Source: a virus
Direction: 5' to 3' (one strand)
IMG/VR virus record: IMGVR_UViG_3300008255_000063
Location: 1 to 38,262 of that record
DNA length: 38,262 nucleotides
The position numbers and the translations under genes are program-made. Position 1 is the stretch's first letter. Each line of letters opens with the position of its first letter. This document shows, piece after piece, positions 1 to 38,262 of the stretch. Below the pieces are notes generated by a model, which saw only the letters and a list, made by a program, of their open reading frames with translations, was not told the origin of the DNA and ran no database searches.

Positions 1-123
1 GCAAAATAAGCGTTAAGTAGCTCCTCTGATCCTCCTACATCCTCGAGGAGTTGATTGTATGTATCTGGCTCGGAGGTTTTAAGAGTGTCGAGAGTTGCTC
101 CATTCGCCACCAACGCTGAGATA
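1..123. repeat. Terminal direct repeat, copy 1 (identical to 38140..38262). Circular-assembly overlap.
   Basis: Base-by-base comparison shows 1..123 (gcaaaataagcgttaag...caacgctgagata) is identical to 38140..38262. The repeat lies inside a continuous minus-strand reading frame. Confidence 0.97.
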
Positions 124-764
124 TCTGTCTTAGCAGTCTCTCGGAGGTTAGTATTAAACTCATCAATCAAATCCAAACGATCCTGTGCGTTCTTTAAAAA
201 GTTAGCTCGCTCAGTCTGAAACTCAGTAGTGGATCGCATCGCTACACCAGAAAGAAGTGCATTGATTTGTGCATCTTGCTCTCGTCGTCGTGACTGGACC
301 ACTTTATCTATTTCAGTATCTACACCTTGAGCATTTTTAGTTGCAAAAGTAGATCCTCCAAGTCCAGAGTTGTTATTTAATGCTCGAGCTCGAGCCTGGA
401 GTCTTTTACCAGCTTCAAGATCTCCCTCAATAACTTGATCTGTTTGCTGTTTAATAAGATCAATTTGACCTTGAGCCATGCGTTTATTCTTTCGGAAAAT
501 ATCCTCCTCGGTTGGAGCTTTCCCTTGTTCTCCAAAAATAGCATTTGCTCGATCCTCGGCTGTAGTTCTTACAGTTCGAGGTTGCTTTGCCTTGTCCTTT
601 GAGTCATTAGTTGCGTTTGCTGAGTAGCTACTAAGAGAGTTGGTAAAAGACTGGAGACTTTCAAGGAGTCCAGATTTAGCGACAGTATCAGCCTTGCCTT
701 TACTATCAATAGTTGGGATTAACCCAGCTAGAGCTTTATTAAGTTGTGTTGTGTCGACTGGCAT
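1..764 (-). CDS. Internal virion / tail-associated protein, N-terminal part. The gene wraps across the window ends and continues at 38139 down to 37419, giving 494 aa in total.
   Basis: ATG at 764 (plus-strand cat 762..764) lies 1 nt from the stop of ORF 766..2184. The frame stays open to position 1, so no stop is reached and the ORF track omits it. The frame is continuous through the repeat into ORF 37419..38252. My translation reads ...TDISALVANGATLDTLK, which matches that ORF. Confidence 0.85.
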   Translation of the reverse strand, partial: MPVDTTQLNKALAGLIPTIDSKGKADTVAKSGLLESLQSFTNSLSSYSANATNDSKDKAKQPRTVRTTAEDRANAIFGEQGKAPTEEDIFRKNKRMAQGQIDLIKQQTDQVIEGDLEAGKRLQARARALNNNSGLGGSTFATKNAQGVDTEIDKVVQSRRREQDAQINALLSGVAMRSTTEFQTERANFLKNAQDRLDLIDEFNTNLRETAKTDISALVANGATLDTLKTSEPDTYNQLLEDVGGSEELLNAYF

Positions 765-6915: not shown

Positions 6916-9900
6916 TTATTCTCGAGTCCAGTTTCCAAAGACACTGATCGTTACGTAGTTTACTGCTCCAGTAGTAGCTCCAAAGTCGATGTATTGAAGC
7001 TCTGAGGCTATGTAGGTTGCGTTTGTGATAGATCCGTCGTCAGTTGTATTGGTCGTGCCACAAGTAATATCCTCGCTCGAGTTACCACTAGCATCTTCTA
7101 TTGCTATAACCTTTGAAGTACCTCCTGTAACGTGACATTGGATCCGACTGATCGTGTAGCCATCTAGGTATGTGGCTGTTGGTAGTAGTCCTCCAGAGAT
7201 AAAGGCATCTGAGGTTGAGGCTACTGTAGTACCCCATATCCGGATATCTTTTGTAGGGATGACGTGAGGTGTAGCTCCAATAATAAGTTGATTATCTGTC
7301 GTGTCGTAAGCGATCTCTCCGGCTGAGTTGACAGTAGGGTTAGTTCCGTTTGGTATTTCCAGACTTGTAGCTCCACCAAAATCCCACTCACCTAAAAGAG
7401 TTGTGATACCTGTATTGAGCATTTCCATAAACTTAGTACCAGCGTTTGAGAACAAAGTTAAAATACTAGCTCCAGATATTCCATGTACATTTAAGTCGGA
7501 AAAAACTGAGGGAGCTGATTGTATCGTTGGCTCAACGTATTTGTCTGGATATTCATTGTCTCCTATATGCCACAGAGAAACTCGCTTTATACCCTGTCGC
7601 TCGGCTCGTTCACGTTTAATATTTAAGGCTTCACTGTCAGAGACAAAATAACTGTTTCCTCCATTTGTCCAAGTAAGCTCTCCAGACTCAGCATCTCGAG
7701 TGGCTCCAGAAAAACCAGGGACCGAACTGATAGCATCGTATGTGTATGCTGTAAAAGAATATCCACCAGTTGCTCCACCGTATCCAGAGGCCGGTATACC
7801 AATAATCAAGCGATCATGGTTACTGATTTTAGATTTTGCATAGTTGATGATTTCATCTTGCCATTTTAAAGGAGCGTTTGGTCGTCCGGCTCCATAGTCA
7901 AAGTGATAGTCGTATACTGCAATAAGTAGATAGTCTACAGGTACGTCCTCAAAGTCCTCATACTCAAGTTGATAGTAACCATCGCTGTTTGCACTATCCC
8001 ATTCATCTCCGGATCCGGATTCACAGTTAGAGCATGAGTTCCAAATAGGAGGGAGGTAGATCATAGTTTTAAGACCATATTTGTGAGCCTCGTTTGAGAG
8101 ATATCTTACATAGTTAATATAGTCAGTTGTCTCTCCAGCCGTCCACGATCCAAATCCCTCCCAGTCTAGCTCAATGCCTGTAAAGCCAGTAGAGGTTGCA
8201 AAGGCAATAAGCTCAGCCGTCATGCTTGTTACAAGTGTACTAGAGCCTGTCAGAGTGTGGATCTCTGGATCGTTACCGGACACCGTCACAAATTGCTCAG
8301 TCGAGTTATCTTTGATGATGAGTGTATTAGTAGCGTTATAACCAAAAGCACCATAACCGGCTACAGTCCGGAGATCAAGGGTTCCTATATCACCACCAGT
8401 AGCATCTACCTCATACCAAATTGGCTTGATCGTATGAAAGTTATTCGCCTCGATATCAGTATTTACATTTAAAGCATCCGGAAAAGTCCAGCCTTGAAGT
8501 GTAGATCTCCATTCTGTTGTAGTTGCTGATCCTCCAGAGCCGGATGCTGTGACACAGGTAAAAGATCCAGTATCACTGATATCCTGGAGAAAATCATTCC
8601 CAGTACAAGGAGTACCAAAAAACGATGCTAGAGTCGGAGACGTGATACTAGGCGATGTCCCAAACACAAGAGCTCCGGATCCAGTTTCTCCAGTTACAGC
8701 ACTGGCTAAGTTTGCACTCGATGGTGTACCTAAGAAAGTCGCTACTCCTGTACCGAGTCCGGATACTCCAGTCGCAATAGGGAGGCTTGTTGCATCAGAT
8801 AGGTTGAAAGCTGGAGTGGCATCAGTACCTCCAAGAGAAAGCGACACACCTCCGTACGAGACAGAGGAGTTTGCCAGCATAGCATTTGAGATAGCACTGT
8901 TATCTACAGTACAGGTCGTACCATTACAAGTAAAAGATCCAAAGTCCGAGGCTGAGAGATTATCCGGATCGATGGCATTAGCCGTGATTTGCTGAGTAGC
9001 CAAAGATAAATAATCCTCTCCAGCTAGAGTAACGGCATTGTGCATATTGGTATATGCTGTCTGCCAGTCAGTAGTTGAAGCTGTCAAAATTGGCCCATAA
9101 CCACTGTCATAAGCGATTGCTAGTGTGCCAGTAGTAGTTACTGGACTCCCTGTCACTGTAAAGCCTGTAGGGACCGTCTGAGCGACGCTAGTGACTGATC
9201 CACCGCCACCTCCGGCCGGTACAGCCCAAGTACCATCTCCTCTCCAAAAAGAAGTTGATGAGGCTCCGGTTCCACTATTAAGATTAGCTACTGCTAAGTT
9301 ACCAGTCACACCATTTGCTAGGTTGACTTGATTCCAAGATGGGTTATTGGATGTGCCTTGATTAGATAAATATCGTGTGGCGTTAGTATCTTTAGCAAGC
9401 TCAGCGATTGAGCCGGCACTTGCTCCATATAAAAGATCGCCTTGTGCTACTGCACCTCCAGCAAAGTTGTTGCCATCAAACGTACCTGTCATAGCGGATG
9501 TGAGGACCGCTAGAGTACCGGATGTTGGATAGGTGACGTTTGTGTTTCCAGTAGTAGTGAGGGTAAGACTGTGAGCTCCAGAGCGGATAAAGCTGTTGGC
9601 TCCGATTGTAAAAGTAGATGGGAGCACCGGAGTACCTGTAAATGTTGGTGAGGCTAGAGGAGCTTTGAGATCTAGTGAGGCTTGTGTAGGGATGACATAT
9701 CCAGTATCCAGTCCAAAAGCCAAAGTCCCCGATGAAGTAATCGGAGATCCTGTGATAGTTAGTCCTGTCGGTACGGTAGCGGAAACGCTCGTAACAGTGC
9801 CAGTTGCCCCTCCACCGCCTCCGGCTGGCCAAGTAGTCTCACAGGTATCTCCAGTGAGACAGATCTGAGCCACAGTGATTGTAGCGTTCCCCATCCATAC

Positions 9901-10095
9901 ATCTGAGTTAGGGATCCGAGTTACAAGAGCGTCTTGAGTTGATGAGCTTACCCACTGTGGGATCCGAGTAATTGCTCCATCACCTATCCCTAGGTTTTCC
10001 ACAGGCTGTAACTCGATAGTATCGAGAGCTAGATAAGCCCCCATCCAGCTACCTCCTACAATCAAACCAAGTAATATTGTAAATAAAGTTTTCAT
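6916..10095 (-). CDS. Tail fibre/spike with duplicated fibre repeats and a GH18-like glycoside hydrolase domain.
   Basis: 1059-aa ORF. Two copies of PAGGGGG-x-VTSV-x2-TVPTG(L/F)T(I/V)TGSP(I/V)T-x2-GTLA occur at about aa 90-140 and 290-340. The motif FTGIELDWEGF (GIELDWE encoded at 8158..8178) matches the GH18 catalytic DxxDxDxE region with D-W-E retained. A later VSLWHIGDNE resembles the GH18 beta-8 strand. Confidence 0.75.
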   Translation of the reverse strand: MKTLFTILLGLIVGGSWMGAYLALDTIELQPVENLGIGDGAITRIPQWVSSSTQDALVTRIPNSDVWMGNATITVAQICLTGDTCETTWPAGGGGGATGTVTSVSATVPTGLTITGSPITSSGTLAFGLDTGYVIPTQASLDLKAPLASPTFTGTPVLPSTFTIGANSFIRSGAHSLTLTTTGNTNVTYPTSGTLAVLTSAMTGTFDGNNFAGGAVAQGDLLYGASAGSIAELAKDTNATRYLSNQGTSNNPSWNQVNLANGVTGNLAVANLNSGTGASSTSFWRGDGTWAVPAGGGGGSVTSVAQTVPTGFTVTGSPVTTTGTLAIAYDSGYGPILTASTTDWQTAYTNMHNAVTLAGEDYLSLATQQITANAIDPDNLSASDFGSFTCNGTTCTVDNSAISNAMLANSSVSYGGVSLSLGGTDATPAFNLSDATSLPIATGVSGLGTGVATFLGTPSSANLASAVTGETGSGALVFGTSPSITSPTLASFFGTPCTGNDFLQDISDTGSFTCVTASGSGGSATTTEWRSTLQGWTFPDALNVNTDIEANNFHTIKPIWYEVDATGGDIGTLDLRTVAGYGAFGYNATNTLIIKDNSTEQFVTVSGNDPEIHTLTGSSTLVTSMTAELIAFATSTGFTGIELDWEGFGSWTAGETTDYINYVRYLSNEAHKYGLKTMIYLPPIWNSCSNCESGSGDEWDSANSDGYYQLEYEDFEDVPVDYLLIAVYDYHFDYGAGRPNAPLKWQDEIINYAKSKISNHDRLIIGIPASGYGGATGGYSFTAYTYDAISSVPGFSGATRDAESGELTWTNGGNSYFVSDSEALNIKRERAERQGIKRVSLWHIGDNEYPDKYVEPTIQSAPSVFSDLNVHGISGASILTLFSNAGTKFMEMLNTGITTLLGEWDFGGATSLEIPNGTNPTVNSAGEIAYDTTDNQLIIGATPHVIPTKDIRIWGTTVASTSDAFISGGLLPTATYLDGYTISRIQCHVTGGTSKVIAIEDASGNSSEDITCGTTNTTDDGSITNATYIASELQYIDFGATTGAVNYVTISVFGNWTRE

Positions 10096-12190: not shown

Positions 12191-13477
12191 TTAGTTGTAA
12201 GCGTCAGTACGTACCCACACGTCGACCATCTTAACGATAGCCTCCTGGAATACTCGAGCACCCCAAGCTGACCAGGTAACAACGTCGAGTCCTACATACC
12301 CAGTACGAGGCTGAGTCATAGCACTTGGAGTCTTTTGGATCACCGCATCGATTGAGTTGGCGATACCAAAGAGACAGTGTTGTACTTGGAGAGCTGGAGT
12401 CCACACGATATCGGCTGGAGTAGCAGTCTCAGAGACTTCTACGTAGCCAAGACCAGTGGCCTTGATACCCATGTATGTAGCACCATCGGTAGCTACAACA
12501 TTTCGGAGGAGATCACGGTTAGCCTGTGTACACTCTACGTATAGAGTACCTACAGTACCAGATCCACCAACTCCATCTGCATCAAGCTCAAGTCCCTCAG
12601 AGTCGTTGTAAAACGCTACGAGAGCATCGAGAGTGAGAGCAAGTGAAGCTCCACGCTTTACGTTACCTGGAGTTGTTCCAAGTGTATCAAGGATTGTAGC
12701 GGTAACTCCGTTGATTGTGACAGTGTCACCATCTGAGAAGTTAGTAGCTACAGCCGTGAGACGACCAGACCATCCAATAGCGTTAGAGACGAAAATCTCA
12801 TAACCCATGTAACGTCCTACGTGGCCCTGGATACCGACCTTGTCTCCAAGATCAGAGTCCTTACCATCAAGAGACTCTAAGAGCATCTCGTGGACATCCG
12901 GAGAGATCACAGCCACAGCCATATCTCGCTTACTGTCTTCCTTTTTGAAGCCAGTAAACTTAGCTGAGTTGTCGATCATTATGTTATTACGTTGCAATTT
13001 CTTAGAACTCTTTGAAAAGAGCTTTCGGACGTTGCCTGTAGTAACAGTGATACCCTCTCCATCAGTACCTCCAAGATCACCAGCATCCAGCGTATTGCTG
13101 AAAGAGTCATAGTGACCGAGGATGTGTCCATCGATCTGATTAAAGATCGCTTTCGAGGCATCCATCGCATACGCTTTTTGCGTAGGCAAGTGACGTTGGA
13201 TATCATCGAGCTTTTTGATATAAAACGATGTTTCATATACTTGATCGATGACGAGCTGTTGATTGGTGTCAGTCAATGATTGACGACGGTATGATCCGTC
13301 CCCACCCATAGGCCGAGCGTACATCGCTGAGCGGTACTGTCGGTTGACCGTGTCACCTTTCTCCAGACCTTGTGCAAGGCGGTAGTTTGAAACTGCCGGA
13401 TACACAGGGATTTTGTGATGCGTTACTTGGTACACTTTGTCCCAAGTTTGTTGCATCGGAAATGTGTTCGGGTTCAT
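12191..13477 (-). CDS. Major capsid protein (putative).
   Basis: 428-aa ORF directly downstream of the acidic scaffold-like gene and downstream of portal and TerL. It is flanked by structured intergenic regions. The call rests on position and size only. Confidence 0.65.
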   Translation of the reverse strand: MNPNTFPMQQTWDKVYQVTHHKIPVYPAVSNYRLAQGLEKGDTVNRQYRSAMYARPMGGDGSYRRQSLTDTNQQLVIDQVYETSFYIKKLDDIQRHLPTQKAYAMDASKAIFNQIDGHILGHYDSFSNTLDAGDLGGTDGEGITVTTGNVRKLFSKSSKKLQRNNIMIDNSAKFTGFKKEDSKRDMAVAVISPDVHEMLLESLDGKDSDLGDKVGIQGHVGRYMGYEIFVSNAIGWSGRLTAVATNFSDGDTVTINGVTATILDTLGTTPGNVKRGASLALTLDALVAFYNDSEGLELDADGVGGSGTVGTLYVECTQANRDLLRNVVATDGATYMGIKATGLGYVEVSETATPADIVWTPALQVQHCLFGIANSIDAVIQKTPSAMTQPRTGYVGLDVVTWSAWGARVFQEAIVKMVDVWVRTDAYN

Positions 13478-18343: not shown

Positions 18344-20014
18344 TCAAGCCATATTGTACTCACCCGCTTTCAGTGGAGATTTGTACTTTGTCTTATCTTT
18401 CTCTTTCATTACACGAGCGTATTTGCGTCCCTCCCATGCGAGCATAGCAGACATAAGCAAGTCAAAGTGCTTAGTCATCCCCTCCTGTTTATGTATTATA
18501 TGCACATCCTTGTTTTTAAAGTTGTACATTTCCTTGAGGATGTTGATATCTAGGATCTCCAGCTCTCCGGACTCTACCGCCTCAAAGAAGTTAGAGACGA
18601 TATCCGGCTTAGATCCAGTGGTAGTTTTAAAGCCATACTCCTCAGTCTTTCGCTTAGAGGTTTTGTTTTTAACCTGGCGAGTGTACATATTGAAATACTC
18701 CAGATCTACCAGCTTAGCTACAGTAGCGTATCCGGTAAGGTTGATTTCCGGTACTCCAAAAGCCTCACCATACTCCAGACCCCACTTAGCACAGACATGG
18801 CCGTGATCAGATGGCTTGGTTTCGTTATTGTCGTAGGTAAGGACCGTACGTGCTGGACGTGTAGAAAAGTCGATAGTTGTGAGAGTGTTGGAGTCGCCAC
18901 CAATACCCTCGGCCGTGTCAGCTCCCCAGGCGTAGCGATGGGATGGCTTATACTCTCGCCAGATGCGAGCACCACCCACAACCTTTTTAGGCACGATGTT
19001 TTTAGCCTCGAGCTCCTCAATGAGTCCCTTGATGATCTCACGATCTCCGTAGTAGTCTCCGGATGCTCCAGGGTTATTAAGCATCTCAGTCTCAAAGACA
19101 GAGTTACCAAGCTCCTCACGCTTAGCCTCGAGACTTACTTTTGATTTAGAGATAGGCACATTTGCATTATACGCTATGGCCTCAGCGTTTGTCTTGGTGT
19201 ATTTACCTGGCCAAGTGAGTGATCCTCCCTTAGTCATTACAGGGATAAATCGTACTCGAGCGTTTGAGAGAGCATAGAGTCCCTTAGATCCGGTTGCTGA
19301 GTCTCCGTTAATGATGTATTCGATCACTCCGTCGTCTGTAATGTAGTTACCGAGGTAGAGGATAGATCCGTTTGGACCAAGTCCAGAGCGTACCTCGTCA
19401 ACGTGAGAGCGGATCTTGTAGGTAAAAGCGTAAGAGTCTTTTGTTTTATTGGTTTCGATGTCGTCGAAAATGAAAAAGTCCGGACGATCTGATCCGTGTA
19501 CTCGTCCTCTAGCTGACTCCTGTGTAGAGTAAGCCTCAACTCGGATACCATTCTCAGTCACAAAGCGTCCGATCTTTTTAGGTTTTTTACCAGCCAGCTC
19601 GCTGTCTCCTTTCTCCTGGTAAAACAAGTGGCCATAGTCGGCGATCAATCTCTGGTTAGTCTGGAGCTCAGTCACCACGTCATAAAGAGCTGACTCCGAG
19701 TTGTCGCCATCAAATGAGTCCCAGTTTATAAACTTCTTTTTCTCGTGACAGATGTACCAGAGTACCAGCATCTTAGCGTATGAGGTTTTGGCTGACTCTC
19801 GAAACGTGATCCAGGCTGATTGCTTAATGGTGAGATCAGCTAGATCTTGAGCGTCCTGTACAAAGTCCCAGTGAAAAGGAGCAAGTGGATATTTAAAATA
19901 GTGTGGAAAATAGTAGAGGCAAAAGTAGATAAACTTTCTATCAAAAATATAGTGACGCTGAGCAAGCGTACCTCTAAAGAGTAGCTCCTTAATGGCTGGA
20001 TTAAGTTTTTTCAT
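18344..20014 (-). CDS. terL: Terminase large subunit.
   Basis: 556-aa ORF. It has a Walker A-like FRESAKTS, a Walker B-like PDFFIFDDIE, and a C-terminal nuclease-sized domain. An HNH gene lies just upstream and the portal just downstream. Confidence 0.85.
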   Translation of the reverse strand: MKKLNPAIKELLFRGTLAQRHYIFDRKFIYFCLYYFPHYFKYPLAPFHWDFVQDAQDLADLTIKQSAWITFRESAKTSYAKMLVLWYICHEKKKFINWDSFDGDNSESALYDVVTELQTNQRLIADYGHLFYQEKGDSELAGKKPKKIGRFVTENGIRVEAYSTQESARGRVHGSDRPDFFIFDDIETNKTKDSYAFTYKIRSHVDEVRSGLGPNGSILYLGNYITDDGVIEYIINGDSATGSKGLYALSNARVRFIPVMTKGGSLTWPGKYTKTNAEAIAYNANVPISKSKVSLEAKREELGNSVFETEMLNNPGASGDYYGDREIIKGLIEELEAKNIVPKKVVGGARIWREYKPSHRYAWGADTAEGIGGDSNTLTTIDFSTRPARTVLTYDNNETKPSDHGHVCAKWGLEYGEAFGVPEINLTGYATVAKLVDLEYFNMYTRQVKNKTSKRKTEEYGFKTTTGSKPDIVSNFFEAVESGELEILDINILKEMYNFKNKDVHIIHKQEGMTKHFDLLMSAMLAWEGRKYARVMKEKDKTKYKSPLKAGEYNMA

Positions 20015-29928: not shown

Positions 29929-30513
29929 ATGAAATCTGATAAACATAAAGTAGCAACGATCATTTTAATCGTTAAAGTTCTGACCTTATTACTAGCTATA
30001 AGCCTTGATGGTGGCGATCCAGTACACTACGTAGCCTCTCCGGAGATCTACACGTTTACACAACACGCTGAGGCTTCAACCGAGGCGACCATGTCTGATG
30101 AGGAGCTCTGTGGACTGGATGCTATCGTTTGCGAAAATGAGGAGCCGGTAGAGAAAGCCTTAAAAGAGATCCCTCACAAGACAGCTAAGACGGCTGAGTT
30201 GATCAAGTACCTATACGACTATGCTGAGGGTACTGATGTAAATCCAGAAATTGTCTCACGTACGATTTATTGTGAGTCTATGTGGTACAACATCAAATCT
30301 GGTTACTTCAATGAGCAAGGTATCCAGGAGGAGTCTTATGGCCTCTCTCAAATCCACTTACCAAACCACCCTCACATTACTAAAGAACAGGCTTTGGACC
30401 CTTACTTTGCTCTCCGGTTTATTGTCGATCGATGGCACGATGTCAAATGGTACGGCTACGATCGAGAGCGAGAAGTATGCACCAACTCAATCAAAGGCTA
30501 CTGGATCGATTAA
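29929..30513 (+). CDS. Membrane-anchored lytic transglycosylase (SLT-like).
   Basis: 194-aa ORF with an N-terminal TM segment (VATIILIVKVLTLLLAISL). The segment YCESMWYNIKSGYFNEQGIQEESYGLSQIH matches the SLT catalytic ES ... GL(M/S)QI pattern. Confidence 0.7.
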   Translation: MKSDKHKVATIILIVKVLTLLLAISLDGGDPVHYVASPEIYTFTQHAEASTEATMSDEELCGLDAIVCENEEPVEKALKEIPHKTAKTAELIKYLYDYAEGTDVNPEIVSRTIYCESMWYNIKSGYFNEQGIQEESYGLSQIHLPNHPHITKEQALDPYFALRFIVDRWHDVKWYGYDREREVCTNSIKGYWID

Positions 30514-30536
30514 CAAAATCTAATGGGATACACACT

Positions 30537-31079
30537 ATGAAAAGTAAAAAAAACACTATACCGCTAAAGCTCAGAGATGAGTTATCTAAGGATCAAGAGT
30601 ACGAGTACTGCTGTATAACCGGCAAGCGGAGTACTCCGGAGGATCCTATTGAGTGGCATCATAACTTAAAGTTTGCTGGCTCAAACGTCCAGGAGCGATT
30701 TTGTATCTTGCCTATTCTACAGTCAATCCACTTTAAAGCCGATAACATCAAAGTCAGAGAGACGCTGGATCGAGCGATGATCTATCGTGATACCGAGAAT
30801 AAGCTCTTTGATCCAATGGGATATGGTAAAGCGGTAAACTGGAGACAGCGAGAGATCTACCTCAACTCTATACACGGACCATACACTCCTCCAGTACCGG
30901 AGCCAAAGTCAGCGACTCGTGCTCTACCGGAAAAGAAAGAGGGATCCGGAGTTGAGCTAACTAAGCAAGAGTGGGCCATTATCTACAGCGTAAAGCGGAA
31001 ATTGGAGGAGGCACACCCTGGCCACCCTTTCTCAGCTCGTGAGGTTTTGTCGCACGTTATACACAGTTTTGAGGACTAA
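30537..31079 (+). CDS. Hypothetical protein with an HNH/DUF968-like Cys/His motif.
   Basis: Start taken at ATG 30537 (MKSKKNTIPLK...), giving 180 aa. It is preceded by TGGGATACACACT. The motif is CCITGKRSTPEDPIEWHHNLKFAGSNVQERFCILPILQSIH. The nuclease assignment is weak. Confidence 0.6.
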   Translation: MKSKKNTIPLKLRDELSKDQEYEYCCITGKRSTPEDPIEWHHNLKFAGSNVQERFCILPILQSIHFKADNIKVRETLDRAMIYRDTENKLFDPMGYGKAVNWRQREIYLNSIHGPYTPPVPEPKSATRALPEKKEGSGVELTKQEWAIIYSVKRKLEEAHPGHPFSAREVLSHVIHSFED

Positions 31080-31142
31080 ATCAGATTTTTCCGGATGTTC
31101 TATCTTTTTTCTTTTTTTAGTCCTTATTATTACTATTAGCCC

Positions 31143-31339
31143 TGTGGATACTGTGGAAAAATTAAAAATCTCTTTATTTTTAAGTATTATTCCGCTCCTT
31201 TCTACTGTGAATTAAAACTTCATTAAGTGTTCATTAAGCTGTGTATAGGGACTCTCTCTGAGTTATCCCCAAAATTGTCCACAGGCTACCAACATCCTGT
31301 CCGGATCTTGTACGTCATCTTATACGCTCACTATCCACA
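31143..31339. other. Cluster of DnaA-box-like 9-mers next to AT-rich tracts (candidate replication origin).
   Basis: The boxes are TGTGGATAC (31143..31151, rc GTATCCACA), TGTGGAAAA (31152..31160, rc TTTTCCACA), TTATCCCCA (31263..31271), TTGTCCACA (31275..31283) and CTATCCACA (31331..31339). Each is 8/9 to TTATCCACA. AT-rich runs lie at 31081..31140 and 31157..31195. Confidence 0.5.
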
Positions 31340-31364
31340 GGATATACACACCCTCGAAACAAAG

Positions 31365-31392
31365 AAAAAGCCGGACAAAAGTCCGGCTTTTT
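31365..31392. terminator. Bidirectional rho-independent terminator between the convergent modules.
   Basis: AAAAAGCCGGAC-aaaa-GTCCGGCTTTTT is perfectly symmetric. It lies between the plus-strand gene ending at 31079 and the minus-strand holin ending at 31437. Confidence 0.9.
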
Positions 31393-31436
31393 CTGTAGTT
31401 TCGTATTGGGATACACACTACCGTCGGTACTTACTT

Positions 31437-31670
31437 TTAAGGACCGTACCGACGACCTCCTAATGGTTTAACGTCACCTTTCATGTAACGGATGATGTAG
31501 CCTACAGCATTGATCGCTAGAGTCACCACAAGGATGATAGTAGTGATTGCTTGAGCTACTGAGTCTGGTGTAAGACCATACTTAGTAAGATCTACACCAA
31601 ACAGCATAACGAGGGTAAACACCATACCGATCTGGCGGAGGAGTTGTTCTCGTGAAAAGTTTTCAAACAT
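31437..31670 (-). CDS. Holin (putative).
   Basis: 77-aa ORF with two hydrophobic segments (IGMVFTLVMLFGV and AITTIILVVTLAINAVGYII) and a basic C-terminus. It lies immediately downstream of the amidase gene. Confidence 0.6.
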   Translation of the reverse strand: MFENFSREQLLRQIGMVFTLVMLFGVDLTKYGLTPDSVAQAITTIILVVTLAINAVGYIIRYMKGDVKPLGGRRYGP

Positions 31671-31674
31671 ACGA

Positions 31675-32382
31675 TTATTTTAAATGAATAAAACCGACAC
31701 AGGCATGATCGCCTTGACCCCCAAACAGAGGAGGCGGTACGATCACTCCCTTTAATTGAGTCTTGAGTCTTTGGAGCTGTAGGTAGAGCTCCACAATCCT
31801 TTTTAAGAGAGCGATCTTCATGCTGAGTTCAGCATCTACAGTCGGATACTTTTTCTCAGCGAGTAGATCCTGGATCCACTTGTTACTAAGTGATGTGCCG
31901 TAGCAGTCAGTCTGTTGATAGATACGATGAGGACCAGTGCGAGCGATGGCAAAATTGAGCGTAGTTCCAGGGACTACGACCACATCCTTGTAGTCTTTTG
32001 CGATCAGCTTACTGAGGTAACGAGCGATATCAGCCTCGATCTCTGGAGTCATAGGATCTACGCTCCGGCCGGTTGCTGGATCTCGCATGTAGTTACCAAT
32101 GATACAGACTGAGAAAGTATCAAAGTTATGGCCTACTTGTGCCATCGTCTCCTCTCCTAGAGCTCGACATTGTGTAAAGGTACGAGTCTTTGGATCATAG
32201 ATCACGTTGTAGCCAGCCCACCGGATAGACTCATTAAGGATATACATTGATGGATTGTAATCATTCCATCGCTGTCGATGGTATTGACTGATCTGTTGTG
32301 GAGTTAAATGCAACGACGACGCATAAGGATCGTTAGCAATACCTCCGGCATGGTGGACCGCTATCTTAGTTAGTGTTCTCAT
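31675..32382 (-). CDS. N-acetylmuramoyl-L-alanine amidase (amidase_2/PGRP-type endolysin).
   Basis: Start taken at ATG 32382 (MRTLTKIAVHHAGG...), giving 235 aa. The elements IAVHHAG, GYNVIYD, VGHNFDTFSVCIIGNY and GPHRIYQQTDCYG follow the amidase_2 zinc-ligand and substrate pattern. The track start at 32433 is a TTG. Confidence 0.8.
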   Translation of the reverse strand: MRTLTKIAVHHAGGIANDPYASSLHLTPQQISQYHRQRWNDYNPSMYILNESIRWAGYNVIYDPKTRTFTQCRALGEETMAQVGHNFDTFSVCIIGNYMRDPATGRSVDPMTPEIEADIARYLSKLIAKDYKDVVVVPGTTLNFAIARTGPHRIYQQTDCYGTSLSNKWIQDLLAEKKYPTVDAELSMKIALLKRIVELYLQLQRLKTQLKGVIVPPPLFGGQGDHACVGFIHLK

Positions 32383-32469
32383 ATTTTTGTGCTCGAGCGT
32401 CGTCTGAGTCCTTACAAGAGGCCCATATAACAACTAACACGATGATTATCCCAATAACAAATGTCATAA

Positions 32470-35400
32470 CTATAGTGTAGGTAATTGTGGGAGTTTTGGC
32501 AAGCTGTTTGCTGGGAGAGCTGGGAGCTGAGGGAGTTTTGGTACTGAGCTCTCTGGAGTCTCCTCATCCCCCTCAAAGAGTCCGTTATCGAACTGACCAA
32601 ACACTTTTGGAGAGATTGTTTTCTTGAGCTTAGTAATACCACGATTCTTACCCTCATCCTCTCCGGACTTGATGATATCCATCTTAGGGTTTAAGAAACC
32701 GTCCTCAAAAGAAACGATGTCAGTTAGACCCTTAATGATATCGGCTAGGAAAGCATTAAAGCGAGCCTGTGAGGTAAACAGGTTAGGATCCATCGCTCCG
32801 ACCATTGTGAGAGCATCCTGGTAGCCTTTAACGACTAATTGCTCAGCAAAGCTCCTGTCCTTTTTATCTTGTAGAGAGCGAGCGTAGCCACCGACCACGA
32901 GTGAGATAGTACCAGCCAATAGAGCTGATCGGAGGAGCTCTCTAGTTTCCTTACGCTTGAGTGTGGCCTTGAGTCCCTCTTTACGAGCGACGTTCTGGAC
33001 CGTCTTTAGGTTATCGATAGTTGTCGACATGATCGGGACCGCCCAGGTACGATACTGAGTAAAGACTTTTCCAAGTGCTGTCTTACCCATCACTGACTCA
33101 GCTCCCTCTACTACTCGGTAGCGACCCATCTCTTTACGGAGTTCTGCTAGACGTTTTGATGTGATGATACCTGTCTTAAACTCTTGCTTTGTAAGGGATC
33201 CTAGCAAGTGTTGAGCGTTAGCTGTACGTGCTCCCTCAGCAAACAAAGCAAACATTCCTGTCATAAGTTTATCTCCTGGATCACTAGCTTGGTTACGCAT
33301 TTTTGTCAGCGTACTCTCTCCGATGAAAGACTCATTCTGACGGAGGATCTCTTGTCCTCGCTTAGTGAGCATACGGCCAGATCCGAGTGACATCTTACGA
33401 GCTCCGAGGCCTATAAAGGTAGATGATTGCTCACCTAAGAAAGAGGCAACTCCGACCGGCACACTAAAGCCCAAGTCGATAATACGAGTAAGAGCTACAC
33501 CGGAGCGGAGTACCCAGTCGACACGACCTCCAGGCTTTACAATCGTCTCAGCTACACGTCCCTTTTTAGTGTTGAGCCACTTCTTTGTAAACTTTTTAAG
33601 GGATCGATCGAGCTCTAGGCCACGCTCAGAATACACTCGAGGCGATAACGCATGAGCATAGATATCAATCTTAGGGACCAGGCTGTCGAGTGCCACCTTA
33701 CGTTCAAAGGTAGTAAAGTAGATCTCTACAGCTTTAGCGACGTTCTGTGTCGGGACCATGCCTCCGGTACGTTGCATAGAGAATTGGAAAAACTTTTCCA
33801 GAGGGAGGATCTCTCCGGTATCGCCATCAAGGATATTGAGATAAGCCTCATCTTGTTTGTACTGATCAAAGCTCTCTTTAAATGCTTTGATAAGACCGTC
33901 GTCTTTCCAAGTTTCAAGGAAACCACGTCGGATATGAGTGATGTAATCCGATCGGTACTTTTTTAATACTTGCATCTGGACCAGGTAGTCTCGAGCTTGC
34001 TCGTATAGATTTTTAATATATTGGCCGGCTTCGATCTCCTCGGCTGTCATTTCATCAGCCAGTTTAGACTTACCAAGAGCATCAGACTCGAGCCACTGGA
34101 AAATCTTTTTATCTGTAGGGATAAACTTATCGAGGAAACCTCGCTTTGTAGACTTGCGAGCCTTACTCATCAATACATCAAGTCGCTCTCGGATCTTAAT
34201 CACGTTCTCTCCAGCCTCAATAAAGGCTCGATTCTTTTCAGTGACCATCACATCATAAAATGGATTCTGTCTAGCTAGAGCTGAGTCATATCGATACTCA
34301 TCCATTTCCTTGTAAGCGACGTTACCAATAGATCCAGGCTCGACTCCAGCATCCTTAGCCAGACTCTCAAGAGCCTCACGGATCGTCCGGATGTCTGCTA
34401 TGTCTGTATGTTTTACAGTTTGGATCTGTCGCTTGGTGAGAAACTCATCACCTAGTTTAAAGTTCTCAAGTACATCGATCATCTCGACGATTTGCTTTTC
34501 TGTCATCTGCTCCATGCTAGGGTAGCCCATCGCTTGAAACATATTTTCAGTCTTTTTAAAGTCACGCTCAAAGATGAGAGACTTGAGTTCTACACGACGC
34601 TCAATAGCTCTAAAGGTTGCCTCTCCCTCAATCTGGATTTTATCCATGTAGGCTTTCCACTGATCGTCGGTATAGAGACGAGGATCCTGGAAACGTGTTC
34701 GCTTGAGGATTCGATTCCACTCGTGCTGTGAGAAATGGAAAAAATCTCGGACGTTTGCGAGCTCTTTTTGTCGTGAAACACCCTCAGCCTTAATCTCAGC
34801 TTTGAGTGCCTCAAGGATTTTCTTAGTATCTCGGTAGTCTTGAGTACGGCTTTGGACCTCCTCGATCATCTCAGCTAGTCGCTCACGTTGTTTCACGTAT
34901 AACCTAAACTCCTCTCGAGCCATCTCTGTAGACTCAAAACCTAGATCTCCAGCGATCTCATCGCCTTGTGTAGCCCACTTTGATTTACCAATACCAGTTA
35001 CCTCTCCAAGAGAGCCGACATTTTCTCCGACTTTAGGAGCATACTTTGCTAGTTGCTTAGCTGGATTTGCATCGATGGCATCCTTAGCAAACTCTATCTC
35101 GAGTTTTTTATATTCCAACTCCTCTGCTTTCGACAAAGTAGTACCACCCTTTTTATCGAGTAGTGCTGTCCTGGCCTTTCGAGCGATCTCAGTAGGAGAG
35201 AGAGCTGTGGCATCATCGTCAGCTTGCTTAGCTATTTTTGCTTTAGTGGCCTTGTAGTACTCCTCAGCACTAGCAAATCCCTTGCTTTTTACAGTGGCCT
35301 CAAGAGCCTCACGAGTAATACCAGTCTTGTTAAAGAAATGGTTAAAGGATGTAGACTGAGCTACTTGATCCTGGAGTTTATTGTTTACCCTACGGCTTCG

Positions 35401-37413
35401 AGTATTTCCTCCATCCCCTCTCGAAACGCTTGCTGTCCTTTCTCGTACGCTGGACCGGATGTCGGAGTCGGGTTTTTTGGCCACGCTCTTTGTGGTCGCT
35501 TTTTCGGATCGGAGAGACTCCTCTCGTCGGGTTTTTGATTTGCGGATTTGTTTTTCAGTGAGTTTAGCATTTTCGTTTGTGCTTAAATACTTATAAAGAT
35601 TTTCCTTATTATACCTCAATTTGTCAACCGTTGCAATAATCTCATCCGGATCTGTAATAATCCTCATTCGATCAGTTCCGAGGTCGGCTTTGTTTCTTAC
35701 TAAGCGAGTATCTGAAAGATTTATTTTATAGCCATCATCTGCTAGTTTTTTTATAGTATTAACAAAGCCTACATGCTTATCTATAAACACTTTCAATGGT
35801 ACGTCTCTACCAGTTCGTATTGCTCTTGATTGAGCCCACTTCCAAGCTCTAGCTATGTCTGGCAAGATTGCATCAATTTCGATAGATTTACCAAACTCCT
35901 CTACCTGTTTTAGTTTAGCTATCGCACTATCGTAGTCTGCCATTACACCATCTACAATGATTCCTTTTACATCATCGTTAGTCTCTAGTTTTTTAAGGAC
36001 TGTTTCGCTTTTCCCAGATCCAGATCCACCGGCTAAAAACCGGACTGTATCATTCTTATCCTCCTTGAGAGCCTTAGCAAACGCATCCTTTGCAAGTTGT
36101 GAGAAAGTCTCGTGATCTTTAGGATCAGTCATACCGGCCACTTTTTTGAGAGCGTCCGGATCAATCACTATATTACCCTTGCCGTTATCAAAGACTTTTA
36201 GAGCGTCATCGACGGCCTTTACAGTATCTCCCTTTGTAACCGCCTCTTTAAAGGCCACAGGATCAACTTTAGGAGCGTCTGATACTACCTTTGATACTTC
36301 TGTCGCATCGGGACCTTTAACAGCGTCATCGAGGATTTTGGCTATGCTGAGCTCATTCTGTGACTGAGCTATCTTAGGAGCGATCTCCTCGGCCACCTCC
36401 TCGCTGATGCCTAGATTTTTAAGGACTGGAGTAATGTCTTTTACATCATCATAGTTTTTAAGTGTCGCTAAGATAGGACCTTTAGCGATTTTTGTAGTCC
36501 CAAAAAATATAGGAGCATCAAGGACAGCAAAAGCATCCTCGAGTAAGTTCGTGACTCGGAGTGCTGATTTCTCCTCTTTTGAAAGCTCGGCTCCGGTATC
36601 TGCCAGTTGATCTACGTTGTTACCCTCCTGGCCTGGAGCTTTAGGAACTGTTTTAACAGCATTGTTTTTTACGTCCTGGATAGCTTTATCAAGTAGCTCT
36701 CGCTCGGTTAAATCTGGAAAACTCTCGGCTAGTTTGTCGTAGCGAGTCATTACTTGCTCACCTACTTCGGCATCAGTAGGATCCATTTTCTTTTGGAAAC
36801 CCTCAAACAGAAAACCAAGTACTCCCTTTTCGACAATCGTCTGAGGGATAGAGCCTGGAGTGTAGAGACTATTGGATGGACCTTGTGGACCAGTACCAGT
36901 AAGAAACTTACCCACGAGTGGGATCTTACTTAATGACTGTCTGGCTTTTTGTACTAAATCCTCCTGGCCTTGTCCGAGTGTTACCCCTTGATCGATATCA
37001 GCTTGTGATTTTTGCTGATTGTATTGAGATTTTTCAGCGTCAGTAAGATCTGCAAAAGTCTTTGGCTTTTCAGTCGGAACTATTGGAGCCGGCTGTACGT
37101 TACTCGAGGGAGTGGATGTCTTAGTCTGGCTAGATGCTATAGCTGGAGTGGATGTAGGGATATCAATACCAAACTTTACGTTAGATGCCGGTTTACTCAT
37201 CAATCGCTCCTGGATTGAGGGACCAATAAAAGGTTTTAAATTGAGAGCTTTTCCGACGCTAGACTTTGACGTATTAGTATTCCCTCCTCGCTGAGATACC
37301 GGCACATAACCCCCACTAGTGGATTTCGTAGTGATGGTTGCTGGAGCCTTTGGAGATCCGGACTGTACGGCTTGCTCCGCTTTTTTCTTTCTCTCTGAGA
37401 CGGGTACATACAT
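32470..37413 (-). CDS. Giant virion protein (polyvalent / ejected-core or tape-measure-like) with an embedded zeta-toxin-like P-loop kinase domain.
   Basis: 1647-aa ORF. A Walker A motif, FLAGGSGSGKSE (AGGSGSGKS encoded at 36007..36033), sits in a ~170-aa zeta/AAA_33-like module at about aa 430-600. The middle is long and helical. The C-terminal third has hydrophobic helices (VALTRIIDLGFSVPVGVASFLG, LMTGMFALFAEGA, LLRSALLAGTISLVVGGYA). The C-terminus has a tandem PKLPQLP. Confidence 0.85.
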   Translation of the reverse strand: MYVPVSERKKKAEQAVQSGSPKAPATITTKSTSGGYVPVSQRGGNTNTSKSSVGKALNLKPFIGPSIQERLMSKPASNVKFGIDIPTSTPAIASSQTKTSTPSSNVQPAPIVPTEKPKTFADLTDAEKSQYNQQKSQADIDQGVTLGQGQEDLVQKARQSLSKIPLVGKFLTGTGPQGPSNSLYTPGSIPQTIVEKGVLGFLFEGFQKKMDPTDAEVGEQVMTRYDKLAESFPDLTERELLDKAIQDVKNNAVKTVPKAPGQEGNNVDQLADTGAELSKEEKSALRVTNLLEDAFAVLDAPIFFGTTKIAKGPILATLKNYDDVKDITPVLKNLGISEEVAEEIAPKIAQSQNELSIAKILDDAVKGPDATEVSKVVSDAPKVDPVAFKEAVTKGDTVKAVDDALKVFDNGKGNIVIDPDALKKVAGMTDPKDHETFSQLAKDAFAKALKEDKNDTVRFLAGGSGSGKSETVLKKLETNDDVKGIIVDGVMADYDSAIAKLKQVEEFGKSIEIDAILPDIARAWKWAQSRAIRTGRDVPLKVFIDKHVGFVNTIKKLADDGYKINLSDTRLVRNKADLGTDRMRIITDPDEIIATVDKLRYNKENLYKYLSTNENAKLTEKQIRKSKTRREESLRSEKATTKSVAKKPDSDIRSSVRERTASVSRGDGGNTRSRRVNNKLQDQVAQSTSFNHFFNKTGITREALEATVKSKGFASAEEYYKATKAKIAKQADDDATALSPTEIARKARTALLDKKGGTTLSKAEELEYKKLEIEFAKDAIDANPAKQLAKYAPKVGENVGSLGEVTGIGKSKWATQGDEIAGDLGFESTEMAREEFRLYVKQRERLAEMIEEVQSRTQDYRDTKKILEALKAEIKAEGVSRQKELANVRDFFHFSQHEWNRILKRTRFQDPRLYTDDQWKAYMDKIQIEGEATFRAIERRVELKSLIFERDFKKTENMFQAMGYPSMEQMTEKQIVEMIDVLENFKLGDEFLTKRQIQTVKHTDIADIRTIREALESLAKDAGVEPGSIGNVAYKEMDEYRYDSALARQNPFYDVMVTEKNRAFIEAGENVIKIRERLDVLMSKARKSTKRGFLDKFIPTDKKIFQWLESDALGKSKLADEMTAEEIEAGQYIKNLYEQARDYLVQMQVLKKYRSDYITHIRRGFLETWKDDGLIKAFKESFDQYKQDEAYLNILDGDTGEILPLEKFFQFSMQRTGGMVPTQNVAKAVEIYFTTFERKVALDSLVPKIDIYAHALSPRVYSERGLELDRSLKKFTKKWLNTKKGRVAETIVKPGGRVDWVLRSGVALTRIIDLGFSVPVGVASFLGEQSSTFIGLGARKMSLGSGRMLTKRGQEILRQNESFIGESTLTKMRNQASDPGDKLMTGMFALFAEGARTANAQHLLGSLTKQEFKTGIITSKRLAELRKEMGRYRVVEGAESVMGKTALGKVFTQYRTWAVPIMSTTIDNLKTVQNVARKEGLKATLKRKETRELLRSALLAGTISLVVGGYARSLQDKKDRSFAEQLVVKGYQDALTMVGAMDPNLFTSQARFNAFLADIIKGLTDIVSFEDGFLNPKMDIIKSGEDEGKNRGITKLKKTISPKVFGQFDNGLFEGDEETPESSVPKLPQLPALPANSLPKLPQLPTL
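35608..35636 (-). promoter_or_regulatory. Consensus sigma-70-like promoter plus CAACCGTTGCA motif inside the giant gene.
   Basis: The minus strand reads TTGCAA (35631..35636)-cggttgacaaattgagg-TATAAT (35608..35613), with a 17-nt spacer. The architecture matches the intergenic promoters at 26261..26289 and 26722..26750. Confidence 0.5.
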
Positions 37414-37418
37414 AGCTT

Positions 37419-38262
37419 TTATTTTTTCTTAGCATCTTCTTCGGCTTTTTTCTGTTGAGCCTTTTGAGCATCTAGGATCTCTTTACGGATCTGCTCATCG
37501 GTTAAACCAAGAGCTTTGTAGCTTTCGACAAACTGCATAATCTGATCGACTGTTTGCTTAGGACTTGGAGCTGTAGTTTCAGTACCACCAAAACCTAAGA
37601 AACCACCAGTCTTAGTAGTAGCTCCTGGAGTGTCATCATCTGGATTTGTGATACCTAGAAACTTAGCTACTCCCCCTCGATCAAGTGATGTATCCTCCTC
37701 CTCTTTTTTAATGGCTCTCCGGACTATTGCTTGTTGCTGATCATCAAGGCCTTTAAGTGCCTCATCGAGTCCATACTCGTTAATATCGGACTGGAGACTT
37801 TTAACATCACCACCGCTAAACCCTCCGGCTATTAGTTCCTCCTTGCCGGTTGTATCAAAAGAAAAGATTTGTTTTTCTGTGCCACTTCCTCCAGCACTTC
37901 CAAACTGTCCTACAGATCCGTAGATCTTTAGTTGTGATGGATCAGTAAGTACATCGGGACCAAACACAAGTTGGCCGGAGGCTGTTTTAGTAATGAGTTT
38001 AAGGCCATCAGTTCGATAGTCCTCTCCAAGATCAAACTCTTGCTTACGTTGTTGTCCGGTTATAGGATCCTGGATCACTTGTACAAATCGTCCGTTTACA
38101 TTGGACTCATAAAGTACTTGATCAGCCGGCACAGAGCTTGCAAAATAAGCGTTAAGTAGCTCCTCTGATCCTCCTACATCCTCGAGGAGTTGATTGTATG
38201 TATCTGGCTCGGAGGTTTTAAGAGTGTCGAGAGTTGCTCCATTCGCCACCAACGCTGAGATA
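37419..38262 (-). CDS. Internal virion / tail-associated protein, C-terminal part of the gene that starts at 764.
   Basis: The frame is open to the window end. The track 'start' at 38252 is an in-frame TTG inside the 123-bp repeat. The product ends with Gly-rich linkers and a Lys/Glu-rich tail (QKAQQKKAEEDAKKK). Confidence 0.85.
   Translation of the reverse strand, partial: ISALVANGATLDTLKTSEPDTYNQLLEDVGGSEELLNAYFASSVPADQVLYESNVNGRFVQVIQDPITGQQRKQEFDLGEDYRTDGLKLITKTASGQLVFGPDVLTDPSQLKIYGSVGQFGSAGGSGTEKQIFSFDTTGKEELIAGGFSGGDVKSLQSDINEYGLDEALKGLDDQQQAIVRRAIKKEEEDTSLDRGGVAKFLGITNPDDDTPGATTKTGGFLGFGGTETTAPSPKQTVDQIMQFVESYKALGLTDEQIRKEILDAQKAQQKKAEEDAKKK
38140..38262. repeat. Terminal direct repeat, copy 2 (identical to 1..123).
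   Basis: Exact 123-nt identity with the window start. Confidence 0.97.

Follow-up and report, generated by a model that had tools for sequence, protein, structure and literature searches.

A predicted ng_zeta1-type kinase in an exchangeable slot of a giant polyvalent late protein from an uncultured phage

The gonococcal enzyme ng_zeta1 (Neisseria gonorrhoeae) belongs to the zeta toxins but is topologically rewired: a swap of two sequence blocks puts the catalytic Asp56 ahead of the P-loop Lys115 (Rocker et al., 2018; PMC5923241). It phosphorylates the 4'-OH of UDP-N-acetylmuramic acid (UDP-MurNAc, UNAM), UDP-N-acetylglucosamine (UDP-GlcNAc, UNAG) and UDP-Glc, with K59 and N75 reading the carboxyethyl group of UNAM and R175 and R181 binding the substrate phosphates (PMC5923241). 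Expression of ng_zeta1 alone lyses E. coli within approximately 30 minutes (PMC5923241). Zeta-toxin-like kinases have also been described among the domains of polyvalent proteins, where weakening of the wall during DNA entry was proposed as their role and where the zeta-like domain was located in conjugative-element proteins and MuF fusions (Iyer, Burroughs, Anand, de Souza and Aravind, 2017; PMC5512222). Here we describe a kinase domain of this family carried by a giant open reading frame (ORF) of 1647 amino acids (aa) in the IMG/VR virus record IMGVR_UViG_3300008255_000063. All 38,262 nucleotides of this record were analysed and are referred to as the window.

The giant ORF and its kinase domain were delimited as follows.

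32470..37413, minus strand: giant ORF, 1647 aa, a polyvalent late protein (ORF list and translation)
35530..36207, minus strand: ng_zeta1-type zeta-toxin-family P-loop kinase domain, aa 403-628 (226 aa), predicted from Pfam, a PDB profile, an AlphaFold2 (AF2) model and Foldseek

A sequence-only reading of the window had proposed a zeta-toxin or AAA_33-like kinase at 35613-36123. The peptide quoted for this interval, GGSGSGKS included, matches the minus-strand translation and lies inside the single 1647-aa ORF. The location was correct but the interval was too narrow, since its upper bound of 36123 cuts off the N-terminal block with the catalytic D420 and the true domain covers aa ~403-628. Membership of the zeta-toxin family was borne out, far beyond chance, by Pfam, profile and fold, while the AAA_33 part was not: Zeta_toxin (PF06414) was the only Pfam family that matched the kinase domain. 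The isolated domain matched PF06414 with E=3e-12 and 46.8 bits and the whole protein with 38.2 bits, where the gathering cut-off is 22.3 bits. A single-sequence search of PDB sequences returned only the gonococcal 'Zeta_1 toxin' (E=3.4e-4). With a profile of 36 domain sequences, the match to ng_zeta1 (6EPH) had E=2.6e-19 over ng_zeta1 residues 50-227, and weaker matches were obtained for the kinase domains of PNKP (~1e-4), for PezT (1.2e-3) and for classical zeta (0.6).

The AF2 model of aa 403-628, built with the alignment of relatives, had a predicted local distance difference test score (pLDDT) of 93.9 and a predicted template modelling score (pTM) of 0.89. Foldseek against the PDB placed six ng_zeta1 chains first (6EPI/6EPH/6EPG), with E down to 9e-9 and template modelling (TM) scores of 0.70-0.72. 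These were followed by zeta (1GVN/3Q8X), AvrRxo1 (4Z8Q-V) and PezT (2P5T), and after those by polynucleotide and nucleotide kinases; the best 17 PDB matches were exclusively ng_zeta1, zeta, AvrRxo1 or PezT. In profile and structure searches the P-loop thus fell in the zeta-toxin family, and the outcome that the sequence-only reading had named as its refutation, a different NTPase class, did not arise. A packaging or chaperone ATPase was ruled out by the same searches, in which the matches are kinases with a catalytic Asp.

The order of the sequence blocks in the phage kinase was that of ng_zeta1. The two proteins aligned collinearly, with D420 located 48 residues upstream of K468, and the AF2 model placed the Asp strand (model residues 12-15) before the P-loop strand (54-59). 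On this alignment and this model we assign the kinase domain to the topologically rewired ng_zeta1 subclass and not to the classical zeta/PezT group, so the type first proposed held for the family but not for the canonical form. The classical UNAG-3'-kinases zeta and PezT (1GVN, 3Q8X, 2P5T) share with the phage kinase the PF06414 family, the kinase fold and the catalytic residue types. However, their Asp strand, which carries the general base (D67 in zeta), comes after the P-loop, whereas in the phage kinase it comes before, and they matched its fold with TM scores of only 0.38-0.48 and its sequence weakly (PezT E=1.2e-3, zeta E=0.6). Best match by both sequence (E=2.6e-19) and fold (TM 0.71) was ng_zeta1, which has the Asp upstream of its P-loop as well.

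Residue conservation was computed across 154 kinase relatives, and the predicted active-site elements are listed below.

36145..36156, minus strand: D420-K423 in VIDPDALKK, predicted catalytic base Asp and substrate-contacting Lys, upstream of the P-loop
36007..36030, minus strand: Walker A / P-loop G462-G-S-G-S-G-K468-S469 (read from the sequence)
35950..35952, minus strand: D488, acidic residue at the end of strand 'GIIVDG', Walker-B-like position, 97% conserved
35806..35826, minus strand: lid arginines R530 to R536, aligned with ng_zeta1 R175 and R181
35704..35775, minus strand: H547 and D568-x-R570, conserved 97%, 95% and 88% in the phage/giant-protein subfamily

All five ng_zeta1 residues D56, K59, K115, R175 and R181 were retained, as D420 (99% conserved; codon at window positions 36154-36156), K423 (90%), K468 (invariant), R530 (invariant) and R536 (84%). 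D488 aligned with the Glu of ng_zeta1 'LLFEG' and with position ~98 of the Pfam Zeta_toxin model. With D420, K423, K468, D488, R530 and R536 conserved, the kinase looks catalytically competent. In contrast, N75 of ng_zeta1 appeared not to be retained: it aligned with D430 beside a 9-residue indel, which makes this part of the alignment uncertain. H547, D568 and R570 were extra in the phage kinase, and ng_zeta1 carries Q, G and N at these positions.

Further differences from ng_zeta1 were found outside the active site. The gonococcal toxin is encoded in a bicistronic toxin-antitoxin operon, whereas the phage kinase is embedded in the 1647-aa protein, and the identity between the two is just ~19%. 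The C-terminal oligonucleotide/oligosaccharide-binding (OB)-fold domain of ng_zeta1 was absent after the phage kinase core in the AF2 model, where helices (model residues 187-225) were followed by a basic linker. No epsilon-like antitoxin gene was found next to the giant gene. Since the kinase is internal to the giant ORF, which is flanked by genes for a 494-aa protein and a 252-aa endolysin-like protein, the locus is not a toxin-antitoxin module.

Around the kinase, comparison of homologues divided the giant protein into two conserved scaffold modules and a hypervariable slot between them.

37033..37413, minus strand: aa 1-127, S/T/P/G-rich N-terminus, probably disordered (composition and motif scan)
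36298..37032, minus strand: module A, conserved scaffold, aa 128-372 (BLASTP blocks, 45-54% identity with homologues P0005, P0006, P0008 and P0016)
35266..36297, minus strand: hypervariable slot, aa 373-716 (P0005, P0006, P0008 and P0016 match both flanks and not the slot itself)
35266..35529, minus strand: basic low-complexity linker after the kinase, aa 629-716 (block composition and sequence)
32590..35265, minus strand: module B, conserved all-alpha scaffold, aa 717-1608 (common to 76 of 78 sampled giant proteins)
33436..33492, minus strand: hydrophobic segment 1, aa 1308-1326 (Kyte-Doolittle, 19-residue window, score 1.46)
32872..32937, minus strand: hydrophobic segment 2, aa 1493-1514 (Kyte-Doolittle score 1.47)
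32473..32544, minus strand: C-terminal period-3 tail, aa 1624-1647, VPKLPQLPALPANSLPKLPQLPTL (read from the sequence)

The homologue searches returned ~76 giant proteins with module B, 949-4464 aa long and mostly from contigs of 35-57 kb, together with two fragments of ~600 aa. Module A was present in 19 of the 78 scaffold proteins. A kinase of the ng_zeta1 type occurred in nine of the 76 module-B proteins (the query included) and in every case lay 230-270 aa ahead of the core block of module B. The variable parts of other members carried ART-PolyVal, the PBECR3 and PBECR5 nucleases, a Pol-beta-type nucleotidyltransferase, an N6/N4 methylase, GNAT, a GH108 lysozyme with PG_binding_3 (P0210), or a set of LPD1, a DarB-like SNF2 and methylase (P0223). 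The Pfam families identified on these homologues were PF18760, PF18812, PF18814, PF18765, PF18796, PF01555, PF00583, PF05838 and PF00176. In most module-B proteins the variable part had no recognisable domain, and in the query the zeta domain was the sole recognisable domain.

Pairwise comparisons showed the same exchange at closer range. In modules A and B, P0005 and the query share 45-60% identity, but the slot sequence of P0005 is unrelated: its insert (aa ~331-622) has an 'LRDGHHRV' motif reminiscent of ParB/sulfiredoxin-type domains, a likeness that Pfam and PDB sequence searches did not confirm. P0003 is 52-82% identical to the query in the scaffold modules and just 26% in the zeta domain. 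Conversely, P0021 and P0022 match the query in the kinase only (43% and 26% identity), and neither BLAST nor hhalign related their scaffolds to module B; P0021 sits at the same genomic position as the query giant gene. Within module B of P0016 (aa 1035-1150) lies an ART-PolyVal-like domain under the Pfam cut-off (22.5 vs 31.2 bits), which suggests a second insertion site in the scaffold. The kinase is an exchangeable cassette in a slot of a conserved scaffold.

The ends of the protein were also recurrent. The motif YVPVSxR occurs twice at the N-terminus (aa 2-8 and 36-42; MYVPVSER... GGYVPVSQR) and is kept in P0002 and P0005. The two hydrophobic segments and the C-terminal PKLPQLP repeat pointed out in the sequence-only reading are present. 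Triplet-repeat C-termini of the form (L/F)P-x or L-[D/E/N]-x were common among the 78 scaffold homologues, including P0002, P0007-P0018 and P0173-P0194, with Leu usually last, for example LDKLDKLEKLEKLDQLETL. A strict count, in which at least 6 of 8 hydrophobic residues are phased with the C-terminal residue, was reached in 22 of the 78. This conserved tail might be a packaging or anchoring signal.

These observations carry the polyvalent-protein architecture that had been suggested for the giant protein: the same scaffold holds different effectors, and the same kinase stands on unrelated giants with LPD38, ART-PolyVal and PBECR5. Like the polyvalent proteins, it is a giant multi-domain phage or mobile-element protein with interchangeable effector domains, and the hallmark Pfam families ART-PolyVal, LPD38, LPD1 and PBECR3/5 are present in homologues. 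However, the carrier here is the module A/B scaffold, and no MuF domain was detected. By size, by a phage genome with genes for the terminase large subunit (TerL), major capsid protein (MCP) and tail, and by the variable effector domains on related proteins, the giant protein fits the polyvalent type.

To measure the spread of the kinase, we searched 1.84 billion cluster representatives exhaustively with a profile; 4050 relatives reached E<=1e-3, and 1917 of them reached E<=1e-10. Among 147 newly returned top kinase hits, 116 had lengths of 1000 aa or more (median 1696, maximum 5453). The domains in a sample of 27 kinase-bearing giants include LPD38, ART-PolyVal, PBECR5, DNA methylase and DUF3990. 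Several BFVD entries of 480-1114 aa are named 'Zeta toxin domain containing protein [uncultured Caudovirales phage]', and the PLSDB plasmids gave a single weak zeta-family match. PHROGs and NCBIfam had no family for the giant protein or for its kinase domain.

When the whole giant protein was searched by tblastn against 50,697 GenBank phages, only the kinase region of the metagenomic siphovirus MW202577.1 matched, and a search of GenBank phages with a commoner subfamily member gave no match. The matching gene (L001, 6051-8687; UOF78922.1) is an 878-aa coding sequence labelled 'thymidylate kinase', whose Zeta_toxin domain (aa 735-816, Pfam E=1.5e-7) is C-terminal in the large protein. On this sequence match the label is probably a misannotation.

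Scaffold relatives in metagenome-assembled genomes (MAGs; GTDB genomes) were found in Patescibacteria, Saccharibacteria, Parcubacteria, Smithella, Smithellaceae, Omnitrophota, Bacteroidales and others. Most of these matches are phage-sized contigs in bins, spread over several phyla. One Smithellaceae homologue of module B lies within a 5.2-Mb chromosome (L017, OY821638.1, 452-460 kb). Another (L004/L009) is held by a 113-kb Patescibacteria-group MAG contig (JAWVHA010000482.1, JAZKAB010000009.1), with a phage integrase gene and host restriction-modification genes a few kb downstream. Some members of the phage clade may be temperate and infect Patescibacteria and Smithellaceae.

The genome around the giant gene was then laid out with the following features.

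18344-20014, minus strand: TerL, late gene
12191-13477, minus strand: MCP, late gene
6916-10095, minus strand: 1059-aa tail protein, in which aa 611-779 match a chitinase-type (GH18-like) glycoside hydrolase domain (Pfam E=1.2e-7)
1..764, minus strand: 5' part of the 494-aa gene (ATG 764-762, directly after the stop of the 472-aa Gly_rich_2 gene)
37419..38139, minus strand: 3' part of the 494-aa gene, upstream of the giant gene, rebuilt across the 123-nt terminal overlap
31675..32433, minus strand: 252-aa endolysin-like ORF, downstream of the giant gene (phrog_1493 endolysin, E=7.7e-6)
31363..31394, minus strand: strong intrinsic-terminator-like hairpin (14-bp stem and T-run), closing the late operon of the giant, 252-aa and 77-aa genes

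An exact 123-nt direct repeat at both ends (1-123 = 38140-38262) identifies the window as a closed circular assembly, with a genome length of 38,139 bp. An identical copy of the giant protein was called on an independent Logan assembly contig, SRR6053076_29900 (38,169 nt). The late genes are all encoded on the minus strand, in the order TerL, 685-aa ORF, MCP, 1059-aa GH18-like tail protein, 222-aa ORF, 628-aa ORF, and at the end 472-aa Gly_rich_2 protein, 494-aa protein, giant ORF, 252-aa ORF, 77-aa ORF and the hairpin. The 494-aa gene spans the circular junction (764..1 joined to 38139..37419) and escapes ORF calling on the linear sequence; it was likewise called on contig L006. The giant gene is the final large gene of the late structural operon, and this position was matched in L002 and L004. 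Located at the meeting point of this operon with the plus-strand ORFs at 29929-31463, the hairpin probably terminates transcription in both directions. The 1059-aa tail protein may be a virion-borne depolymerase, and the 222-aa ORF is homologous (26% identity, E=2e-15) to a protein bearing the podovirus-type SU10_adaptor domain.

The T7-like setting proposed in the sequence-only reading did not hold. TerL is at most 27% identical to that of any GenBank phage, with Mu-like and Bacteroides phages nearest, and no polymerase family was matched among the ORFs scanned. On this distant TerL and the lack of polymerases in the scanned ORFs a T7-like genome was rejected. In the early region, matches of the scanned ORFs were limited to an RNase_T exonuclease, DUF3560 and a KH domain, and none of the ORFs scanned was recognised as a hypermodification gene. 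Enzymatic domains are known from several ejected or packaged proteins of phages, among them T7 gp16 (transglycosylase), the N4 virion RNA polymerase and P1 DarB. The giant protein resembles this group as a large late protein encoded beside tail genes. No PHROG, Pfam or tblastn match to T7 gp14-gp16 was obtained, and a Foldseek match of module B to a 'cyanophage A4 pre-ejectosome' was noise (E=1.7, TM 0.06) and was not used.

Taken as a whole, we give about an even chance to the reading that the giant ORF encodes a polyvalent protein whose slot kinase probably acts on a UDP-sugar precursor of peptidoglycan, and which is packaged and enters the cell with the DNA. The kinase would most likely move the gamma-phosphate of ATP onto a hydroxyl of a small molecule. 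By homology to the nearest characterised enzyme and by the conserved K423, our best guess for the substrate is a UDP-sugar precursor, with UDP-MurNAc or UDP-GlcNAc, phosphorylated on the 4'-OH as by ng_zeta1, the best candidates. Phosphorylated UDP-sugars would be dead-end metabolites that starve MurA and MurC and weaken the wall. The giant protein would be packaged and delivered to the next host along with the DNA; we infer this from the position of its gene, the last large late gene after the tail and fibre-like genes, from the polyvalent precedent and from the lysozyme- and DarB-like homologues. The outcome would be wall weakening or host shut-off.

Several points weigh against this reading. 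The number of enzyme copies injected may be too small to drain the UDP-sugar pool quickly. The alignment of N75 with D430 beside the indel leaves a preference for UNAM unsupported, and the near-invariant H547, D568 and R570, specific to the subfamily, may point to a different substrate; with these residues differing from ng_zeta1, the substrate is not readable by homology. For the scaffold, modules A and B matched no family in Pfam, PHROG or NCBIfam. The AF2 model of module B (aa 701-1647) is all-helical and of low confidence (pLDDT 62, pTM 0.39), and with it Foldseek found nothing in the PDB below E=0.2.

The same substrate residues favour an alternative in which architecture and delivery are unchanged but the kinase serves counter-defence or host takeover, with NAD+ or a nucleotide-derived immune signal as substrate. 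AvrRxo1, a Xanthomonas type III effector (4Z8Q), is a zeta-fold kinase injected as an effector and stands among the structural neighbours; it is an NAD kinase whose product is 3'-NADP. The near-invariant H547, D568 and R570 have no equivalent in ng_zeta1, N75 appears not to be kept, and the partner domains found on such giants (ART-PolyVal, PBECR nucleases, methylases, SNF2) mostly target nucleic acids, NAD or defence systems. However, AvrRxo1 acts on plant or bacterial targets, has the canonical block order and is the weaker match. Among characterised relatives the UDP-sugar kinase is nearest by far, with TM 0.71 vs 0.47-0.49 for AvrRxo1 and E=2.6e-19 vs no AvrRxo1 sequence match, and K59, which contacts the sugar substituent, is retained as K423. 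We regard this alternative as unlikely, though it deserves to be taken seriously.

A second alternative concerns timing: the giant protein would not be ejected, and the kinase would act late in the producing cell, cutting the precursor supply and aiding or timing lysis. Single-gene lysis proteins inhibit MurA, MraY or MurJ, and one of them, Q-beta A2, is also a virion protein. The giant gene belongs to the late operon, directly upstream of the endolysin-like gene, ng_zeta1 expression alone is sufficient to lyse E. coli in ~30 minutes (PMC5923241), and late synthesis would supply far more enzyme copies than injection. On the other side, homologues with the same scaffold hold non-lytic effectors (ART, methylase, nucleases), which fits an entry-phase platform better, and many scaffold homologues have no recognisable slot domain. 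We consider a purely late role doubtful, and distinctly improbable on the present evidence.

A broader joint reading, which we put forward only as an improbable one, would combine several of these elements. In it, the rewired kinases (at least 4000 clusters at 50% identity) would be at home mainly in giant phage and mobile-element proteins and less so as toxin-antitoxin toxins of pathogenic proteobacteria, and module A/B would be a plug-and-play platform injecting one interchangeable enzyme per lineage in phages of uncultured bacteria, with integrated copies on contigs assigned to Patescibacteria and Smithellaceae. The phage-borne kinases, distinguished by H547, D568 and R570, would use neither UNAG nor UNAM but, for example, NAD+ or an immune signalling nucleotide, and would represent a new class of injected anti-defence kinase.

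It is very unlikely that the domain is a polynucleotide or DNA-modifying kinase, similar to polynucleotide kinases (PNKs) or to 5-hydroxymethyldeoxyuridine (5-hmdU) DNA kinases and acting on phage or host nucleic acid. The kinase domains of mammalian PNKP matched the profile over the P-loop region (E=1.6e-4), and PNKs and phage 5-hmdU DNA kinases were weaker fold matches (TM ~0.4). However, the PNK-type matches were partial and much weaker than ng_zeta1, the order with Asp before the P-loop was shared with ng_zeta1 only among the solved structures found, and the scanned ORFs included no hypermodification genes.

Equally remote is a tape-measure or purely structural protein with the P-loop domain as a decayed, inactive passenger: the giant protein is long and helical with hydrophobic segments, but all catalytic residues are conserved under evident purifying selection, no tape-measure family matched in Pfam or PHROG, a relative of the 222-aa ORF bears the podovirus-type SU10_adaptor domain, and the gene lies after the fibre-like genes and before the endolysin-like gene, not between tail-chaperone and distal-tail genes. 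Tape-measure identity was rejected on the family searches and gene position, and the likeness to ejected-core and tape-measure proteins seen in the sequence-only reading found no tie to T7 gp14-16 or to tape-measure proteins in sequence or in the low-confidence fold of module B.

Polyvalent proteins as a concept, and zeta-like kinases as part of them, are already in the literature, and Pfam flags the kinase domain automatically. Three points are new here: on sequence and model, the domain is placed in the rewired ng_zeta1 subclass; the size of this subclass among giant metagenomic proteins is given; and the module A/B scaffold with its hypervariable slot, undescribed so far, is found in a clade of ~35-45-kb uncultured phages. 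The range of the rewired subclass is widened from a few proteobacterial toxin-antitoxin loci to thousands of giant metagenomic proteins, and the 'thymidylate kinase' label of the homologous domain in MW202577.1 is flagged as a probable annotation error. To our knowledge, no zeta domain of a polyvalent protein has been tested experimentally. One scaffold that carries a kinase, an ADP-ribosyltransferase, a nuclease, a methylase, a lysozyme or an empty slot offers natural matched controls for the polyvalent-protein hypothesis. If it is delivered or active in infection, the slot kinase would be a phage-borne enzyme that poisons the supply of cell-wall precursors or another small-molecule pool.

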